64,000 nucleotides of DNA from an uncultured Candidatus Saccharibacteria bacterium. GTDB taxonomy: Bacteria; Patescibacteriota; Minisyncoccia; Portnoybacterales; UBA2143. Location: the NCBI GenBank assembly GCA_964594965.1, contig CAZQMX010000001.1, forward strand, positions 25,667-89,666. Direction: 5' to 3'. How positions within the stretch are numbered: the first letter of the stretch is position 1; each line of letters starts with the position of its first letter. Below the pieces are notes generated by a model. The model was not told where the DNA came from, did no database searches, and worked only from the letters and a program-made list of their open reading frames with translations. Positions 7,116-61,043 of the stretch are shown piece after piece. The position numbers were made by a program, and so were the translations under genes.

Positions 7116-7168
7116 CCAAATCTTTGATTTGGTTAGGAACAGTTATCCTGAGCGAAGTCGAAGGATCT
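7116..7168 (+). repeat. CCAAATCTTTGATTTGG hairpin plus the left arm of the MITE-like element (copy A, truncated)
   Basis: GTTATCCTGAGCGAAGTCGAAGGATCT matches the left arm of the other five copies. The right arm is absent. Confidence 0.5.
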
Positions 7169-10648: not shown

Positions 10649-11236
10649 ATGAATAAGATTGATAAAAGATTAAAAAAAATAAAAGAAGAAGTTATTGAAT
10701 GCCAGAAATGTCCTTTATCTAAATCCAGAACTCTGCCTGTTATTGGACGGGGTAATCATCAGGCAAATATTGTTTTTATTGGCGAAGGCCCGGGATTTAA
10801 TGAGGATAAAACCGGTGTTCCTTTTTGCGGACAAGCCGGCAATATTTTGGATGAACTTTTTAATTCAATTAAATACCAGAGAAAAGATGCTTATGTCTGT
10901 AATATTCTAAAATGCCGACCGCCTAATAATCGCAACCCGGAGAAAAATGAAATTGAGGCCTGTACGCCATATTTAGAAAAACAGGTTAAGATTATTCAGC
11001 CAAAAGTAATTGCAACCATGGGTAATTACGCAACATCATTTATCCTTGAAAAATATGGATTAAAGGATAAGATAGAAGGCATTAGCAGAATTCACGGAAA
11101 AGTTTTTCAGACAGAAGGAATGAAAATTATTCCTCTTTATCATCCGGCGGTAGCAGTTTACAACGCTAATATGAAAGAAACGCTTAAAAAAGATTTTAAG
11201 ATTTTGTCTGAAACTTTGAGCGCGGAGCGCGAATAA
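10649..11236 (+). CDS. uracil-DNA glycosylase, family 4
   Basis: CxxCxL at the N-terminus and GEGPGxxED/GxPFxGxAG motifs. Confidence 0.7.
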   Translation: MNKIDKRLKKIKEEVIECQKCPLSKSRTLPVIGRGNHQANIVFIGEGPGFNEDKTGVPFCGQAGNILDELFNSIKYQRKDAYVCNILKCRPPNNRNPEKNEIEACTPYLEKQVKIIQPKVIATMGNYATSFILEKYGLKDKIEGISRIHGKVFQTEGMKIIPLYHPAVAVYNANMKETLKKDFKILSETLSAERE

Positions 11237-11471
11237 GGTTTTAGTAACAAAATCTTACCCCGTTGTATAACGGGGTAGTCAACTTTATTTAAACATGGTT
11301 AGACCAAGAAAAAGGCGATTAGGATAAATAAGAAATAGAGTTTGTCTAAAGCTCCGAAAATCAAATTTTTGAATCGCTTAGCCCTACCCTCGCTCTGCTC
11401 GGGCAGCGCGCCCACGCCTACTCTTCAAAAATTTATTTTCTGCGCTTTATATACAGGACATCTAGATTAAC

Positions 11472-14703: not shown

Positions 14704-15695
14704 ATTAATCCCATTTTCTGTTTGACTTTCTTTAATGTCTCTCCGGAAATCTTTTGAGCATCCTTGGCACCCTGGTCAAGGATTTTTTTAACCTGAGTCG
14801 GGTCTAGTTCCTTCATTTTTTTCTGAATGGGCTCTAATCCTTTAATAACAAGATCGGCCAGGTCTTTTTTGAATTGAGCATAACCCTTGCCCTTATATTT
14901 CTTTTCAATTCCTTCATAAGACAAACCAGAAAAACAATGATAAATTGTCATTAAATTGGCCACAGCAGGCTTTTTGGGAATATATTCAATTTCTTTTCCC
15001 GAATCTGTCACAGCTCTTTTAATCTTATTCTTAATTTCATCGGGAGAATCAGTCATAAACAGACAGCCCTGGGGAACGCTTTTAGACATCTTTTCAGAGG
15101 GGTCTGCCAAGGACATTATTCTTGCTCCGGCCCCGTAAACGAGGGCCTCGGGTATAATAAAAGTTTTTCCAAATTGATTGTTAAATTTTCGGGCAACTAT
15201 TCTGGTTAGTTCAATGTGTTGTTTTTGATCTTCGCCAACCGGAACAGCGTTGGTATTGTAAAGAAGGATATCCGAAGCCATCAAAACAGGATAACCGAAA
15301 AGCCCCATATTAATATTTTGCTTAAACTGGGCGGCTTTTTCTTTAAATTGAGTCATCCTTTCTAATTCAGAAACAGGAGTTATTGTATTTAAAAGCCAGG
15401 TTAGTTCGGTATGCTCCGGGACGTGGGATTGAACAAAAAGAGTGCATTTTTTAGGGTCTAGACCTGCGGCCAGATAAGTAGTAGCTAGGTCAAGAATATT
15501 TTTTTGCATTCCTTGAACGCTTTCAGGATTAGTTAAGGCGTGTAAATCCACAACACAAAAAATACAATCGTATTGGGACTGTAGTTCTACCCAGTTTTTA
15601 ATTGCACCCAAATAGTTGCCGATATGAATAGAACCAGTTGGCTGGATGCCGCTAAAAATTCTTCTTCGACTTTGCTCAGAATAAATTTTTTTCAT
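14700..15695 (-). CDS. trpS: tryptophan--tRNA ligase
   Basis: HIGH-type HIGN and KMSKS motifs, 331 aa. Confidence 0.85.
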   Translation of the reverse strand: MKKIYSEQSRRRIFSGIQPTGSIHIGNYLGAIKNWVELQSQYDCIFCVVDLHALTNPESVQGMQKNILDLATTYLAAGLDPKKCTLFVQSHVPEHTELTWLLNTITPVSELERMTQFKEKAAQFKQNINMGLFGYPVLMASDILLYNTNAVPVGEDQKQHIELTRIVARKFNNQFGKTFIIPEALVYGAGARIMSLADPSEKMSKSVPQGCLFMTDSPDEIKNKIKRAVTDSGKEIEYIPKKPAVANLMTIYHCFSGLSYEGIEKKYKGKGYAQFKKDLADLVIKGLEPIQKKMKELDPTQVKKILDQGAKDAQKISGETLKKVKQKMGLI

Positions 15696-15708: not shown

Positions 15709-15778
15709 GTCATTCTGAACGAAACGAAGTGGAGTGAAGAATCTTTTTTACAGATCCTTCGCTAACGCTCAGGATGAC
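15709..15778 (-). repeat. MITE-like palindromic element, copy B (minus orientation)
   Basis: GTCATTCTGAAC...GAAGAATCT / AGATCCTTCGCT...CTCAGGATGAC. Sits 14 nt upstream of the trpS start. Confidence 0.7.
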
Positions 15779-19038: not shown

Positions 19039-19119
19039 CTGGGAGTTCGGGTGGGTTCGCCCTGTCATCCGACAGGGCGCCCCGTCGAATGACGGGGCGA
19101 ATCCTCCCACTGGCTCCAG

Positions 19120-24808: not shown

Positions 24809-25795
24809 ATGAAAAAACTAATTATCGCCAATAAAAAGAAATTTATCTTTTTTTTCATTTCCGTTTTTCTATTCTCCTTCCTTTTAATTGGTGGGATTTT
24901 GTATGTTAATCTCCAGATTAATATTCCTTTAAGTAATCAAGAGAATCAAAAGAATTTTCTTATTGAAAAAGGCGAAGGATTAAAAGAAGTTGCTCTACAT
25001 TTGGAAGAAAAGGAAATAATCAAAGATGATCTTTGGTTTGTAATTTATGTCTTTTCCAAAGGCCGGGCAGGGAATTTAATGGCAGGGGAATATTTATTAA
25101 GCCCTTCCTTGACTATTCCTGAAATAACTCAGAAGATTACTTACGGAAACGCTCTTTCAACTGAAATTGAAGTTGTTATTCCAGAAGGGTTTACTCTAAG
25201 AAAAATTGATGCTCGTCTGGCTGCTAATGGTCTAATTAAGGAAGGCAATCTAATGGCTTCTTCAAGAAAACTAGAAGGATATTTATTCCCTGACACTTAT
25301 CGATTTGAAAAGGAATCCACTCTAAATGAAATTATTGATAAAATGACCGATAATTTTAACAAGAAGGTTAATCAGGAATTAAGGGATGAAATCACCAGAC
25401 AAGGAAAAACACTAGACGAGATAATCATTATGGCCAGTTTAATTGAAAAGGAAGTTCCGATTTACGAAGACAGGCGAATTGTTTCAGGAATATTCTGGAA
25501 TCGGATTAGAGATAATTATCCGCTTCAATCCTGCGCTACAATTGCCTACATCCTAGATATTGATAAATGGAAATATTCAACTGAGGATACCAAGGTTGAT
25601 TCGCCTTATAATACGTATAAATACAAAGGGCTACCGCCTAATCCAATTAACAATCCGGGACTTTCGGCAATTAAAGCCGCGATTTATCCAACAGAAACAG
25701 ATTACTATTTCTTCCTCTCCGCTCCGGACGGAACAACTATCTTTTCGAAAACAAACGAAGAACATAATGAGAATAAGGCCAAGTATTTGAATTAG
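24809..25795 (+). CDS. mltG: endolytic murein transglycosylase MltG (YceG family)
   Basis: N-terminal TM helix and YceG motifs EGYLFPDTYRF, YNTYKYKGLPP.PI.NPG. Confidence 0.75.
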   Translation: MKKLIIANKKKFIFFFISVFLFSFLLIGGILYVNLQINIPLSNQENQKNFLIEKGEGLKEVALHLEEKEIIKDDLWFVIYVFSKGRAGNLMAGEYLLSPSLTIPEITQKITYGNALSTEIEVVIPEGFTLRKIDARLAANGLIKEGNLMASSRKLEGYLFPDTYRFEKESTLNEIIDKMTDNFNKKVNQELRDEITRQGKTLDEIIIMASLIEKEVPIYEDRRIVSGIFWNRIRDNYPLQSCATIAYILDIDKWKYSTEDTKVDSPYNTYKYKGLPPNPINNPGLSAIKAAIYPTETDYYFFLSAPDGTTIFSKTNEEHNENKAKYLN

Positions 25796-25824
25796 TTCGA
25801 GTCCGGTTAGAGGAGCCCTGATAC

Positions 25825-25850
25825 AAACCGCACGGTTGCGCGGTTTTTTT
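25825..25850 (+). terminator. rho-independent terminator after mltG
   Basis: AACCGC-acggttgc-GCGGTT followed by TTTTT. Confidence 0.45.
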
Positions 25851-26290
25851 CGTACCGAGGGCAGGACATTTCGGGGGTGTTCGAACCTATTGAATTTTAA
25901 TTGAAAATAGATTATCTTTTTATTAAGAAATAGATATCTTGTATAAAATCCGGTAACTTTGAGCAACGTCATAGCCTCAAAAGAGGACTGGCGAAAAGTA
26001 CGAATTCTTTTTGTGGTCTATGCGACTTTGAAAAAGTTTATGGGCTTTCCAAAAGTGGTCACGAAAATTTAAGGGGGTGCTACCATAAATAGCTCGTTGA
26101 TATAGTTGTCCGGAAACCAAATCCCTCCTGGATATCTATTTCTTAAAATCAAAGAAGAGAGATTGCGTTTTTCTCTCTTCTTTTCTGTTCAACAAATAAG
26201 TTCGAAAGTCGTCCCATCGGGGGAGCCAGATTATCAAGATTCAAACCGAGACTTGACAAGGCCCTATAAATGAAATAAGATTTATGTAGC

Positions 26291-26352
26291 TGTAGACAAT
26301 AGGTGGCTTTGGCGGAAATCCTATCGAGGCGAGTGCCTTTTAATTGTCTACA
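26291..26352 (+). ncRNA. candidate structured RNA element: 10-bp stem TGTAGACAAT/ATTGTCTACA enclosing 42 nt
   Basis: Perfect inverted repeat inside the ~730-bp ORF-free region. Identity unknown. Confidence 0.25.
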
Positions 26353-26426
26353 TATTCGTAGGCATTTTTAATTTTTTGTCTGAATTTTAGAGCCGTAGGC
26401 GAATAAAATTTAGGAACAAAACATTA

Positions 26427-26506
26427 ACCCGCCCAAATTTTCGCGGAGCGAAAAATTGTGGCGGGTGCTCAATTCTGATAACTAAAAATTCTTCTTCGCC
26501 CAGGGC
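26427..26506 (+). promoter_or_regulatory. candidate rplJ (L10) leader: long hairpin CCCGCCCAAATTTTCGC-GGAG-GCGAAAAATTGTGGCGGG, then a TTCGCCC-AG-GGCGAA hairpin with a T-tract
   Basis: Two strong hairpins read directly, 25-105 nt upstream of the rplJ ATG. L10-L12 autoregulatory leaders are known in many bacteria. Assignment is an inference. Confidence 0.35.
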
Positions 26507-26532
26507 GAATTGAATTTTTAGACACAATTGGC

Positions 26533-27045
26533 ATGATTACCAAAGAAAAGAAAAAAGAAATAGTTAAGGATTTAATCGACAAACTATCCCGCCAGAAATC
26601 GGTTGTCTTTTTTGACTATACCGGCCTGAAGGTTAATCAAAGCCAGGAATTAAGAAGCAAATTAAGAGAAGAAGAAATTGATTGCCAGATTAGTAAAAAA
26701 ACCCTAATTGATTTGGCTTTAGAAAAAGCCGGTTTAAAAGATATTAAGGTCAAGGAATTAGCCGGTCGGATTGGTTTGGTTTTTGGATACAAGGACGAAG
26801 TTTTACCAGCCAAGATTCTATATGATTTTTCAAAGGAAAATAAGGATCTTAAAATTATTTCCGGTTTAATTGACGGCGAATTCTTAGGAAACGAGGCTAT
26901 TCTTGAATTAGCCAAATTACCCTCTAAACAGGAATTACTTTCAAAACTGGTTGGCAGTATTTCATCTCCAATCTTCGGATTACATAATACCTTACAAGGT
27001 AATTTACAAAAGTTGATTTATATATTAAAGTCGTGTAAAGTATAA
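26533..27045 (+). CDS. rplJ: ribosomal protein L10
   Basis: [12 protein letters not shown]...VVFFDYTGL, a typical L10 N-terminus. Confidence 0.8.
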
Positions 27046-27064: not shown

Positions 27065-27559
27065 ATGGCAGAAGAAAACAAGAAGGAAGAAACTCCTAAA
27101 GAGGAGGCTCCTAAAAAAGAAGAGGCGCCAACACCTGAGAAAAAAGAAAAGGAAGTTCCCGCCCCGTCGGCGGACAAGGAGGTGCCAAAGAAATTCAAAG
27201 ACTTAGTCAAACAAATTGAAGAACTAAGTGTTTTGGAATTAGCCGAATTGGTTAAAGTTCTAGAGGATAAGTTTGGTGTCAGTGTCCCGCAGTACAGCGG
27301 GATTGCTCCGGCTGCCGGAGGCGCTCCAGCTGAAGGCGGAGAAGAAAAAAGCATCTTTGACATCGAGCTCAAAAGCTCTGGTGACCAGAAAATCAGTGTT
27401 ATTAAGGTGGTTAAAGAAATTACAGACCAAGGATTAAAAGAAGCTAAAGAAATTGTTGATAGCGCTCCGAAAGTTATCAAACAGGGCGTTAAAAAAGAAG
27501 AAGCCGAAGAAATCAAAAAGAAACTAGAAGAAGCCGGCGCAACAGTAGAATTAAAATAA
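27065..27559 (+). CDS. rplL: ribosomal protein L7/L12 with an E/K/P-rich N-terminal extension
   Basis: C-terminal domain KFGVSVP...[56 protein letters not shown]. Confidence 0.8.
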
Positions 27560-27567
27560 CTATTTAT

Positions 27568-27660
27568 CCAAATCTTGATTTGGTAGTAAATAGTTATCCT
27601 GAGGAGCAAAGCGACGAAGGATCTATAACTAACAGATTCTTCGCTAACGCTCAGAATGAC
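27568..27660 (+). repeat. CCAAATCTTGATTTGG hairpin plus MITE-like element, copy C
   Basis: GTTATCCTGAGGAGCAAAGCGACGAAGGATCT / AGATTCTTCGCTAACGCTCAGAATGAC. Between the rplL stop and the ATG at 27680. Confidence 0.7.
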
Positions 27661-27679: not shown

Positions 27680-28255
27680 ATGGCTAAAGAAATTTTAGAA
27701 CAACTTTTCGACTCACCAGTTAAAGTTAAATTACTTAAGCTATTCCTAAGGAATACAAGCGATTCTTTTGAATTAAAAGATATTATCAGACGAACCAGAA
27801 GCAATCCTTCTATTTGCCGCAATCAGATAAAGAAGTTAGAAAATATTAAACTGATAAAAGGTAAATTCAAAGGAAGAGCCAAGGCCTATAGTGTTAACTC
27901 TGACTTTGACTTTTACAATGAGCTCAAAACATTGATTTTGAAATCCAGCCCAGCTTCGAAGAATAAGCTGACTGGCCGGATAAAATCAATTGGAAGAATT
28001 AAATTAGGAATTATTTCTGGTATCTTTATTGACAGCGATAATTCAAGGGCAGATCTTTTAATAGTCGGAGACGCAATTAAAAGGAAGAAATTATCAGATT
28101 TTCTAAGAGAATTGGAAGCTGAAGTTGGTAAGGAAATTGATTATGTTGTTTTATCAACAGCTGAGTTTAAATATCGTTATGATATGTTTGATCGGTTTAT
28201 CCGTGATTTTCTGGAAAAACCGCATGAAAAATTAATCAACAGATTAAAGGTTTAG
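27680..28255 (+). CDS. winged-helix DNA-binding domain fused to a minimal nucleotidyltransferase-like domain; function unknown
   Basis: wHTH-like N-terminus. C-terminal GIISGIFIDSDNSRADLLIV resembles the pol-beta NTase GS...DxD motif. Start trimmed to the ATG after the repeat. Confidence 0.35.
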   Translation: MAKEILEQLFDSPVKVKLLKLFLRNTSDSFELKDIIRRTRSNPSICRNQIKKLENIKLIKGKFKGRAKAYSVNSDFDFYNELKTLILKSSPASKNKLTGRIKSIGRIKLGIISGIFIDSDNSRADLLIVGDAIKRKKLSDFLRELEAEVGKEIDYVVLSTAEFKYRYDMFDRFIRDFLEKPHEKLINRLKV

Positions 28256-28262
28256 TTCATCT

Positions 28263-28721
28263 TTGGCAGGCCACGCCTTGTTGTATATGATTATTATTCC
28301 GCACATGCTAGTTGGAACAGCGATTGGCGTCCATTCGAATAATATTGGAATGGCTTTTTTGTTTGGTTTAATTAGTCACTATCTGCTTGATCTTTTACCT
28401 CATTGGGAATATGTGGATGATATCGGAATAAGCAAGAGAAAAGACCTTATAAAAATACTCATCGATTTCATTATTGGCCTGATAATTGTTTCCTTTTTAA
28501 TCTGGGATCAACCAGAAAAGATAATAATAGTTGGGTTTGCTCTTTTGGGTTCGCTTTTACCTGATTTCCTTATCTTCGGATACAAAGCCTTTGGAATAAA
28601 GATTCTAGAGGGTCATTACGATCTTCACCATAAGATCCATTACTTTAAATACCTTTCTTTTTGGCAGGGATTACCAGCAACTTTGATTATCATAATATTA
28701 TCTATTTTCCTAATAATCTGA
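28263..28721 (+). CDS. membrane-bound metal-dependent hydrolase, YdjM/DUF457-like
   Basis: Small polytopic protein with conserved His residues (PHMLVG...HYLLDLLPHWEY...HHKIH). Confidence 0.4.
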   Translation: MAGHALLYMIIIPHMLVGTAIGVHSNNIGMAFLFGLISHYLLDLLPHWEYVDDIGISKRKDLIKILIDFIIGLIIVSFLIWDQPEKIIIVGFALLGSLLPDFLIFGYKAFGIKILEGHYDLHHKIHYFKYLSFWQGLPATLIIIILSIFLII

Positions 28722-51264: not shown

Positions 51265-51349
51265 CTGAAATTTATTACGGGTTCGCCCTGTCATCCGACG
51301 GGGCGCCCTATCGGATGATAGGGCGATTCCCTCTACCCCTACCATGATA

Positions 51350-59570: not shown

Positions 59571-61043
59571 ATGAAAAAAAATCAAGAAACACAAGTTAGG
59601 TTTGCGCCGAGTCCGACCGGGCTGTTTAGTATAGGCAATGCTCGGACGGCTCTTTTTAACTATTTATTCGCCAAACAGAACAAAGGTAAATTTATTCTTC
59701 GAATAGAAGATACTGATGAAGACCGCTCTGAAAAAAAATATGAGAAAGATATCATAGAGAATCTGAAATGGCTTGGATTAAATTGGGACGAAGGACCAAT
59801 AAAACAGAGTGAAAGAACAGAAATTTATCAGAAAGAAATTAAAAAACTCCTTGAACAAGGAGATGCTTTTTTCTGCGACCACACCAAAGAAGAATTAAAC
59901 GAAGAGAAAGAAGAGCAAAGTAAGAGAAAAGAGGCTCCCCGGCATATTTGCAATCGTCCTAATTATGTCATTCTGAAGGAGTCGAAGACGACTGAAGAAT
60001 CTGTTAACAGATCCTTCGCTGACGCTCAGGATGACAGAGGTAAAAAGGATACTAGAAACAAGAAGGGAATTATTCGATTCCGGACGCCCAAAGGAAAAAT
60101 TACTTTCAATGATTTAATTCGGGGGAAAGTTGAAATTAACGGAGAGCTATTAGGGGATTTCAGCATTGCCAAGGATGAAAAAACTCCTTTATATAATTTT
60201 AGCGCGGTTGTTGACGACGCCGAAATGAAAATATCTCATGTTATTAGAGGAGAAGACCATCTTCCCAATACGCCTAAACAAATCCTCCTATACAAAGCCC
60301 TTAAATTAGATGTGCCGGAATTTGCTCATTTGCCTTTAATTTTAGGTCCAGATAGGTCTAAAATGAGCAAAAGGCATGGATCAACCTCTGTTGGTCAATA
60401 CAAAAAAGAAGGGTATTTACCAGAGGCGATAAATAACTTTTTAGCGCTTTTAGGCTGGAATCCAGGAACGGAAAAAGAAATATTTTCAATGAATGAATTA
60501 ATCAAGGAATTTTCTCTTGAAAGAGTTCATAAAGGCGGAGCAATTTTTAACATTGAACGATTGGATTGGATTAATGGACAATATATTCGGCAGATGGATT
60601 TAGATGAATTAACCAAGAAATGCCTTGAATATTTACCAAAAGAAACAGATTTTGAATACGCTAAGAAAATAGTTAAATTAGAACAGGAAAGAATTAAGAG
60701 ATTGTCGGAAATAGGGGAGTTAAGTCAATTCTTTTTTAAGGATAAACTAGATTATGATAAAGAACTCTTAATTTGGAAGAAAATGTCTTTAGAACAAGTT
60801 AAGGAAAAACTGGAATTAATACTCAAAGAATTAGAAAAAGTAGGGGATTTTGATCAAGAAAACCTGGAATATCTAATGATGCCTCTGGCGGAAAAACACG
60901 GCCGAGGCGAGCTTCTATGGCCTCTGAGAGTGGCTTTAACAGGCCAAAAGGCCTCACCCGGACCTTTTGAGATAATGGAGGTTTTGGGTAAGGAAAAGAC
61001 CTTAGAAAGAGTGGAAGAAGCAATAAAAAAACTCCAAGAATAG
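59571..61043 (+). CDS. gltX: glutamate--tRNA ligase carrying an in-frame 23-aa insertion
   Basis: PSPTG...IGNARTA and KMSKR motifs. Insertion VILKESKTTEESVNRSFADAQDD is encoded by MITE copy F. Confidence 0.85.
   Translation: MKKNQETQVRFAPSPTGLFSIGNARTALFNYLFAKQNKGKFILRIEDTDEDRSEKKYEKDIIENLKWLGLNWDEGPIKQSERTEIYQKEIKKLLEQGDAFFCDHTKEELNEEKEEQSKRKEAPRHICNRPNYVILKESKTTEESVNRSFADAQDDRGKKDTRNKKGIIRFRTPKGKITFNDLIRGKVEINGELLGDFSIAKDEKTPLYNFSAVVDDAEMKISHVIRGEDHLPNTPKQILLYKALKLDVPEFAHLPLILGPDRSKMSKRHGSTSVGQYKKEGYLPEAINNFLALLGWNPGTEKEIFSMNELIKEFSLERVHKGGAIFNIERLDWINGQYIRQMDLDELTKKCLEYLPKETDFEYAKKIVKLEQERIKRLSEIGELSQFFFKDKLDYDKELLIWKKMSLEQVKEKLELILKELEKVGDFDQENLEYLMMPLAEKHGRGELLWPLRVALTGQKASPGPFEIMEVLGKEKTLERVEEAIKKLQE
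59967..60035 (-). repeat. MITE-like palindromic element, copy F (minus orientation), 69 nt, in-frame inside gltX
   Basis: GTCATTCTGAAGGAGTCGAAGACGACTGAAGAATCT / AGATCCTTCGCTGACGCTCAGGATGAC. Starts on a gltX codon boundary and is 23 codons long. Confidence 0.7.

Follow-up and report, generated by a model that had tools for sequence, protein, structure and literature searches.

We analysed the spacer that separates mltG from rplJ, the gene for ribosomal protein L10, in a 64,000-nt stretch of DNA from an uncultured Candidatus Saccharibacteria bacterium (GenBank assembly GCA_964594965.1, contig CAZQMX010000001.1). The whole 64-kb stretch is called the window here, and positions are counted from its first letter. 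The spacer comprises 737 nt (25796-26532) downstream of mltG/YceG (24809-25795), and the genes around it (prenyltransferase, polyprenyl synthetase, PCMT, YceG/MltG, L10 and L7/L12) all lie on the + strand. The same 737-nt sequence was found, 100% identical, in five assemblies from different samples, with no called genes inside. The nearest homologues of the window L10 carry the labels Portnoybacteria, Patescibacteria group or 'Saccharibacteria' metagenome-assembled genomes (MAGs). We consider it likely that the spacer is a composite of the mltG terminator, ~400 nt of strain-specific filler, a promoter with an L10 leader, and a 155-nt hairpin block from a nuclease cassette. Read in this way, the spacer is mostly ordinary: a new member, from the candidate phyla radiation (CPR), of a known kind of autoregulatory leader, a nuclease-cassette remnant and an orphan filler. 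The features that frame it are the following.

25825-25853, + strand: intrinsic terminator of mltG, a hairpin (AAACCGC-acggttgc-GCGGTTT) followed by a T-run, found by terminator scan and folding at -10.7 kcal/mol; it begins 30 nt past the mltG stop codon (25793-25795)
26533-27045, + strand: rplJ (L10), Pfam Ribosomal_L10, 7.6e-24
27065-27559, + strand: rplL (L7/L12), Pfam Ribosomal_L12 and L12_N

An earlier note on this DNA described the spacer as free of open reading frames (ORFs) of 60 aa or more, and our survey bears this out: the sole exception is the antisense ORF 25631-25972, and the others span 46-55 aa with TTG starts. The antisense ORF is not credible, as had been suspected; it overlaps the end of the mltG coding sequence, has no Pfam match and is uncalled in the five assemblies. 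The note was also right that rplK and rplA are missing from the 64-kb window (tblastn with the L11 and L1 proteins of relatives as queries). It had further singled out mltG as the gene preceding rplJ. That order is correct, but mltG lies directly 5' of rplJ in at least 14 related contigs, with gaps of 114 to 2090 nt, and it is therefore no peculiarity of the window genome.

A predicted L10 leader in the 5' UTR of rplJ

The spacer contains a candidate L10 leader, located in the 5' untranslated region (UTR) of rplJ downstream of a conserved promoter. Its elements are as follows.

26253-26281, + strand: sigma-70-type promoter of rplJL, TTGACA-17 nt-TAAGAT, 10/12 matches, promoter scan
26272-26380, + strand: extent of the match to Rfam RF00557 (L10_leader), 41.1 bits, E 4.9e-5, in a 951-nt search in E-value mode
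26289-26330, + strand: predicted L10(L12)4-binding hairpin (anti-antiterminator), from the Rfam L10_leader alignment and covariation
26291-26352, + strand: antiterminator, in which UGUAGACAAU (26291-26300) pairs with AUUGUCUACA (26343-26352)
26345-26377, + strand: attenuator terminator, a hairpin UGUCUAC-auauuc-GUAGGCA (26345-26364) followed by UUUUUAAUUUUUU, from the terminator scan, folding and the terminator part of RF00557

Rfam was searched once in gathering mode, which listed only tRNAs and not the L10 leader, and twice in E-value mode; over these runs the L10 leader was the sole find in the spacer. RNase P, tmRNA, signal recognition particle (SRP) RNA and 6S RNA, for which the earlier note had also proposed such a scan, were not matched, and ARAGORN found no tmRNA. 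The note had assigned an L10 leader to the 3' 150 nt of the spacer; the leader is present, but ~150 nt 5' of the ATG, at 26272-26380. Orthologous leaders of related loci (designated by L numbers) score 44.6 bits (L001), 51.0 (L066) and 46.2 (L026) against RF00557, and nucleotide identity to the window leader is 94% over 101 nt in L001 and 87% over 158 nt in L066. The TTGACA...TAAGAT promoter likewise lies directly 5' of the leader in L001, L002, L003, L063, L064 and L066. Comparison of the mltG–rplJ spacer with relatives, another check that had been suggested, thus showed conservation of leader and promoter, but no homologue for the first ~400 nt. The leader together with the part downstream of it folds much better than shuffled sequences (z -6.0).

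The putative binding hairpin consists of a lower stem (GCU/GGC) and an upper stem (AUAGG/CCUAU), kink-turn strands AGACA (26294-26298) and CGAGG (26325-26329), and an unpaired GAAA (in a GGAAAU context) with two conserved adenosines at 26316-26317. For comparison, the core was taken from 29 distinct CPR leaders, of which 24 were aligned for pair counts. Over the eight pairs of the two stems (5-bp upper and 3-bp lower), 98.4% of cells were paired in the 24 leaders, as opposed to at most 46% in slid controls. Double changes numbered 35, distributed over 5 pairs, versus 10.0±2.3 in shuffles (0/500 shuffles as high). Invariant in the 24 leaders are A9, G10 and A11 of AGACA, the A-G-G that ends CGAGG, and adenosine 26316; at least 90% of them keep A13, the first G of CGAGG and adenosine 26317. 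A kink-turn, a bulged C and two adenosines define RNA that binds L10(L12)4 (PMC3616713), and the window has all of these: a kink-turn hairpin (AGACA ... CGAGG) with a covarying stem, the bulged C and two unpaired adenosines.

Alternative pairings and a model of attenuation

The 10-bp repeat that the earlier note reported (TGTAGACAAT at 26291-26300 and ATTGTCTACA at 26343-26352) is real and forms the stem of the antiterminator. This stem encloses the binding hairpin, with which it has AGACAAU in common, and its 3' arm doubles as the 5' arm of the terminator, with which it has UGUCUACA in common. For free RNA through position 26353, the minimum free energy is -22.5 kcal/mol (the 10-bp stem), versus -8.1 kcal/mol for the terminator alone. 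When the binding hairpin was enforced in folding, a hairpin ending at the U-run appeared. The overlapping layout of antiterminator and terminator recurs in relatives with changed sequences; the L002 counterpart has the antiterminator CCAUAGACAA:UUGUCUAUGG and the terminator UCUAUGG-uuaau-CCAUAGA.

On the basis of these pairings, we infer that rplJL of the window organism is attenuated by L10(L12)4. In the default fold of the nascent RNA, the antiterminator would form and transcription would continue into rplJ. Free L10(L12)4 would bind the kink-turn hairpin, which would mimic its site on 23S rRNA, and thereby withhold the AGACAAU strand; with this strand withheld, the terminator hairpin (UGUCUAC...GUAGGCA) and its U-run would form, and transcription would stop before rplJ. 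The same logic of anti-antiterminator, antiterminator and terminator was shown experimentally for B. subtilis rplJL (PMC4538822).

The B. subtilis leader (RF00557; Yakhnin et al. 2015, PMC4538822) resembles that of the window in having a promoter-proximal hairpin in which a kink-turn and unpaired adenosines imitate the L10(L12)4 site of 23S rRNA, mutually exclusive binding hairpin, antiterminator and terminator with a U-run, and a location in the 5' UTR of rplJ-rplL. The two differ in arrangement—the binding hairpin is nested inside the antiterminator in the window and precedes it in B. subtilis—and a leader peptide and Shine-Dalgarno sequence are not recognisable in the window, where an extra 155 nt of foreign hairpins also lies between terminator and AUG. 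Two further differences weigh against the assignment. The score of the window leader (41.1 bits) falls 3 bits below the RF00557 gathering score of 44, and the unpaired motif reads GAA in the window, not UAA as in Geobacillus and Bacillus (PMC4538822 for the latter). The GAA form occurs in 7 of the 29 CPR leaders (the window and six others) and UAA in most, and the two adenosines are kept in the window. We file the window sequence as a predicted member of L10_leader despite its sub-threshold score, because of its orthology and structural features.

Across phyla, L10(L12)4-interacting RNA has an apical part of variable length and sometimes a second hairpin (Fu et al. 2013, PMC3616713; Iben & Draper 2008 as cited there), as is the case here in L063, L009 and L035. 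CPR/Patescibacteria were not part of that survey; in the clade of the window, the upstream gene is mltG, not rplA. In L063 (79-222), the leader is of the L064 sequence type, although the L10 protein is 97% identical to that of the window, which indicates mosaic recombination at the 5' end of rplJ. In this leader, the apical loop of the L10-binding stem accommodates an additional hairpin, CCGCC...GGCGG.

An L10(L12)4 feedback leader with a Bacillus-like attenuator thus appears to have been kept in reduced CPR genomes, though rplJL has parted from rplKA there. For annotation, the finding is useful because the Rfam threshold just misses the window copy.

A hairpin block between the attenuator and rplJ

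Between the attenuator and rplJ lies a lineage-specific block of ~155 nt (26370-26532) that folds into three hairpins, termed H1, H2 and H3. The block and a partial copy elsewhere in the window are listed below.

26369-26426, + strand: H1, -15.2 kcal/mol; 87% identical to L066
26427-26466, + strand: H2, -24.6 kcal/mol, z -5.7; arms ACCCGCCCAAATT / AATTGTGGCGGGT
26467-26532, + strand: linker and H3, core 26482-26521, -19.7 kcal/mol; the tail ...UUUUUAGACACAAUUGGC abuts the rplJ AUG
11192-11280, + strand: partial copy of H1 and H2 at the 3' end of a UDG-family gene (udg); H1' (11192-11253) spans the stop codon (11234-11236)

Two of these hairpins had been noticed before. That of 26427-26464 is real and strong (26427-26466), but its loop is GGA, one G having been counted twice. 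The hairpin TTCGCC-CAG-GGCGAA, described with a T-tract, is present at 26495-26509; the T-run, however, is paired inside the longer hairpin 26482-26521 and is thus not a free U-tract.

The distance from the U-run of the attenuator to the rplJ ATG is 7-30 nt in most relatives (L001, 12; L063, 12; L064, 11; L026, 7; L027, 8; L029, 11), and reaches 168 nt in the window, 149 in L002 and 413 in L066. The block is absent from L001, L063 and L064, whose L10 proteins are 91%, 97% and 86% identical to that of the window, respectively. It has a homologue in L066, a Portnoybacteria MAG with an L10 82% identical to the window's: window 26274-26430 corresponds to L066 1040-1197 (87%) and window 26457-26532 to L066 1474-1543 (87%). 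At the rplJ site of L066, an 84-aa GIY-YIG ORF (1209-1463, Pfam 1.1e-16) lies between arms at the H2 position (ACCCCCACACCAATT / AATTGGTGTGGGGGT). The block recurs in L066 3' of rplL, before the next gene, with perfect arms and 75 nt of non-coding filler between them; the window and both L066 copies share the 28-mer GCTCAATTCTGATAACTAAAAATTCTTC without a mismatch.

Within the window, the copy at udg matches H1 and H2 with 47.3 bits, compared with a maximum of 37.4 in 200 shuffles (0/200 reach the score), and its second hairpin (H2') reads ACCCCG-uuguauaa-CGGGGU. A fuzzy search for further H1 copies was too permissive, and none of its matches beyond the two known copies was convincing. A 17-nt identity at 15652-15668 was rejected as a copy of the block; it lies inside a coding start and is probably due to chance.

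We conclude that the block is probably an ORF-less derivative of a GIY-YIG cassette, or possibly its empty landing hairpin, because the homologous L066 sequence carries a GIY-YIG gene within the middle hairpin at the same site. Several observations weigh against a derivative of this kind. The H2 arms of the window are complementary to each other and stand at the position of the cassette repeat, yet agree with it at only ~10 of 15 consensus positions; the reverse order, with the hairpin present first and the nuclease cassette inserted into it in the lineage of L066, is therefore equally possible. Pairing in H1 and H2 is kept via compensatory changes (of the 10 pairs in the inner stem of H1, 3 have both nucleotides changed between the window copies), which could point to a selected host function instead of selfish persistence. 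A target-site duplication was not found for the block, and the 64 kb hold only the one partial extra copy.

The compensatory changes bear on a different explanation, in which the block is a host-selected extension of the rplJ 5' UTR (one that stabilises the mRNA, is processed by an RNase or controls translation, its last hairpin gating the start codon) and the GIY-YIG gene of L066 is a later intruder. Such a role would fit hairpins that are all very stable (energies as listed; z -4.0 to -5.7), the survival of H1 pairing through the three double changes, and H2 arms that diverge from the cassette repeat yet stay complementary. It would also fit an H3 that, in the window as in the two L066 copies, stops 1-2 nt short of the AUG, and an unrelated ~120-nt insert at the same place in L002, whose 20-nt arms likewise close at the AUG. 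The distribution of the block speaks for the opposite: it is missing from the nearest relatives L001, L063 and L064 (U-run to ATG, 11-12 nt), in L066 it also stands 5' of an unrelated gene, and in the window a part of it lies 3' of udg. The identity of the 28-mer across copies, while L10 is only 82% identical, points to recent spread. We regard host selection as an improbable origin and favour descent from the GIY-YIG cassette. Given its place between the attenuator and the rplJ start codon, the cassette remnant would be transcribed under L10 control, and read-through transcripts would have to carry its hairpins, the last ending 1-2 nt before the AUG.

The insert of L002 (2856-3000; ~140 nt between the L10 attenuator and the rplJ ATG) has 20-nt closing arms, CCCTGTAGAGAAATTTTGAC / GTCAAAATTCTTCTACAGGG, with a single nucleotide left between them and the ATG. 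A TTCGCC-AAA-GGCGAA hairpin within the insert resembles the tip of H3; the sister contig L003 is without the insert. As a homologue of the block, the insert was rejected: only short motifs are alike (TTCGCC-NNN-GGCGAAT and AAAATTCTTCT), and BLAST was not significant.

A GIY-YIG cassette flanked by inverted repeats

The 84-aa stand-alone GIY-YIG ORF of L066 belongs to a family of 364 clusters with 70-81% identity. In every context examined, comprising ~10 distinct places, the ORF lies between the arms of the 15-bp inverted repeat seen in L066 (left repeat ACCCCCACACCAAT[TC], right repeat AATTGGTGTGGGGGT); coordinates are 1209-1463 in L066, 1501-1755 in L069, L070, L073 and L075, and 601-855 in L077 and L078. 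Among the contexts fetched, it always lies just 5' of the next (housekeeping) gene and is co-directional with it: phosphomutase|Yip1, aconitase|IDH, HD|SurA, pilin-like|GT2, Wzz|HTH and Obg|TypA. The contigs come from several phyla (labels Portnoybacteria, Moranbacteria and Omnitrophota), and some have no label. Identical cassette proteins occur at two loci of one sample, and L066 carries two copies of the block. The pair of inverted repeats was not found in viral contigs, and a match to the repeat in L031 was dismissed as chance, being coding sequence. From the recurrence of the cassette in these contexts, we infer that it may be mobile.

Free-standing GIY-YIG homing endonuclease genes, of which the seg genes of phage T4 are an example, are the first system with which the cassette can be compared. 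GIY-YIG proteins also occur in non-intron insertions of CPR rRNA genes (PMC11270868), and the likeness to both lies in a small ORF between conserved genes, co-oriented with the downstream gene. A further likeness is the patchy occurrence among close relatives, with mosaic flanks (as in L063, with its different leader type). The cassette differs in encoding 84 aa only, the catalytic domain alone, with no recognisable DNA-binding domain, and in its conserved 15-bp inverted repeat, a feature absent from classical homing endonuclease genes; the copy in the window, in addition, is ORF-less.

A second comparison is with repetitive extragenic palindromic (REP) sequences and REPINs, which go with RAYT, a tyrosine transposase, and with bacterial miniature inverted-repeat transposable elements (MITEs). 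Like these, the cassette has an enzyme gene between inverted repeats and ORF-less intergenic hairpin derivatives beside gene ends. It differs from REP/REPIN in having a GIY-YIG nuclease in place of the tyrosine transposase, in its very low number of window copies (one full and one partial), and in that no target duplication was identified.

No description of a repeat-flanked GIY-YIG cassette was found in the literature searched. Tentatively, then, the family may represent a widespread, undescribed miniature mobile cassette—a GIY-YIG nuclease of 84 aa, reduced to the catalytic domain, with a 15-bp inverted repeat—that settles 5' of housekeeping genes and decays to ORF-less hairpins in the manner of REPINs and RAYT, the remnant in the window lying within an L10-autoregulated 5' UTR. 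As a possible new small mobile element that lands beside the start codons of essential genes, it is the sole part of the spacer findings that might repay more work; the findings alter no major open question.

The filler segment downstream of mltG

The segment between the mltG terminator and the rplJL promoter has the following extent.

25853-26252, strand not assigned: non-coding filler with repeats and hairpins and without a homologue in the sequences searched

It contains two 18-nt direct repeats (25895-25912 and 25918-25935) and a perfect 16-nt inverted repeat, TTAAGAAATAGATATC ... GATATCTATTTCTTAA (25923-25938/26131-26146), that encloses 192 nt and whose arms extend imperfectly. This is the largest repeat of the spacer and had been missed in the earlier note, as had a perfect 12-bp hairpin at 26151-26183, which is followed by ~70 nt up to the promoter. 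The segment folds with z -3.2 on each strand, so the strands cannot be told apart by folding.

The earlier note had suggested that an unannotated non-coding RNA could occupy the ~500 nt outside the leader. This is not supported: there was no Rfam match at E<=10 (nothing beyond chance for the filler in searches of 951 nt and 321 nt), and no similarity or conservation in 79 related or fetched loci, phages, plasmids and viral contigs. In the closest relative (L001, L10 91% identical), two protein genes, a methyltransferase and a membrane protein, occupy this position instead.

Relatives differ widely in what they carry in this slot between mltG and the rplJ promoter. It is empty in L002, L003 and L027, holds a DJ-1/PfpI gene in L004, L026 and L028, and a Phd-like pair in L064 and L066. 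The pair (L064 2403-2859, L066 544-1000) is conserved, encoding a 70-aa, weakly Phd/YefM-like protein and a protein of 78-80 aa without family, and is probably a toxin–antitoxin module.

Several candidate identities for the filler were rejected. The segment gave no tblastn or tblastx signal as a remnant of the slot genes of relatives (methyltransferase, membrane protein, DJ-1/PfpI, Phd-like pair) or of the GIY-YIG ORF. A 47-aa minus-strand ORF, with AGGAGGG 4 nt before a TTG start, has no real homologue among 1.84 billion representative proteins; an exhaustive HMMER search returned only two long repeat proteins, in which a 33-residue repeat unit matches by summed weak scores. Direct repeats flanking the segment (25790-25830 vs 26195-26248) were considered as att sites or a target duplication, and 46/1000 shuffles and 129/1624 genomic tiles score as high.

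Most probably, the filler is what decay has left of an accessory or mobile insertion; it would have no conserved function and lie in a recombination hotspot. Certain points do not sit easily with decay: the missing homologues are negative evidence from one lineage; the five assemblies, being 100% identical, are uninformative on constraint; and long-decayed DNA does not usually show perfect repeats such as the 16-nt inverted repeat and the 12-bp hairpin.

The perfect repeats might instead belong to a strain-specific small RNA (sRNA) gene. On the + strand, this would occupy ~25925-26190, with a 224-nt body, a 16-17-bp terminal stem, a terminator-like hairpin 4 nt later and a weak promoter (TTGAAT-17-TATCTT, 25890-25918); a short minus-strand transcript from TTGTCA-18-GATAAT (26259-26230) is the other form. 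A closing stem, hairpin and U-rich tail do resemble structured sRNA genes, the fold has a z-score of -3.2, and the promoter scan picked up the minus-strand promoter-like site. Yet the equal z-score on both strands is what DNA palindromes would give, the + strand promoter (8/12 positions, read by eye) is below the scan threshold, and promoter-like sites in total number 2, versus 2.6 expected in shuffles. Together with the missing Rfam match and the lack of a homologue in any relative or collection, these points make an sRNA gene doubtful.

The same inverted repeat could also mark a 224-bp MITE with 16-nt terminal repeats, or an invertible switch with recombination sites. Perfect 16-nt arms 192 nt apart are far beyond chance, the imperfect extension of the arms reaches ~48 nt, the left arm is tandemly duplicated, and the mltG–rplJ slot is an insertion hotspot in relatives. 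We consider either element very unlikely. A further copy of the repeat was found neither in the window nor in any fetched locus, there is no visible target-site duplication (the flanking candidate above not being significant), and the orientation is the same in 5/5 assemblies from different samples. There is no strong outward promoter and no promoter within the segment that passes the scan, and the hairpin at 26151-26183 would block read-out toward rplJ.

If the filler and the hairpin block are indeed remnants of insertions, long 'empty' spacers in CPR genomes can consist of selfish insertions, not hidden RNA genes. The pyrimidine arm of the 26151-26183 hairpin (26170-26186) and the purine-rich codons 4-9 of rplJ (26544-26560) are complementary at 88%, probably a low-complexity coincidence.

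Other repeats and tRNA genes in the window

A DUF5671 protein is also present in the window. Downstream of rplL, a 191-aa gene is directly followed by tRNA-Val(CAC) in five relatives (L001 4564-4636, L064 4629-4701, L066 3357-3429, L026 4098-4170 and L004 4657-4731); the corresponding place in the window (28255-28263) has only 7 nt and no tRNA.

A REP-like motif, TTCGCTNNNGCTCAGRATGAC, occurs four times in the window, versus 0.08 expected (15758-15778, 27640-27660, 60015-60035 and, with 3 mismatches, 7142-7162). It forms long hairpins, such as that of 27596-27660 between rplL and the next gene; this hairpin overlaps the mechanical ORF start at 27656, and gene callers start 24 nt later, giving the protein of 191 aa. 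Immediately 3' of tRNA genes, at 19049-19108 and 51283-51326, there are tandem double hairpins of high GC content (TCGCCCTGTCATCCGACAGGGCG / GGGCGCCCCGTCGAATGACGGGGCGA and a close variant) that look like a repeat family.

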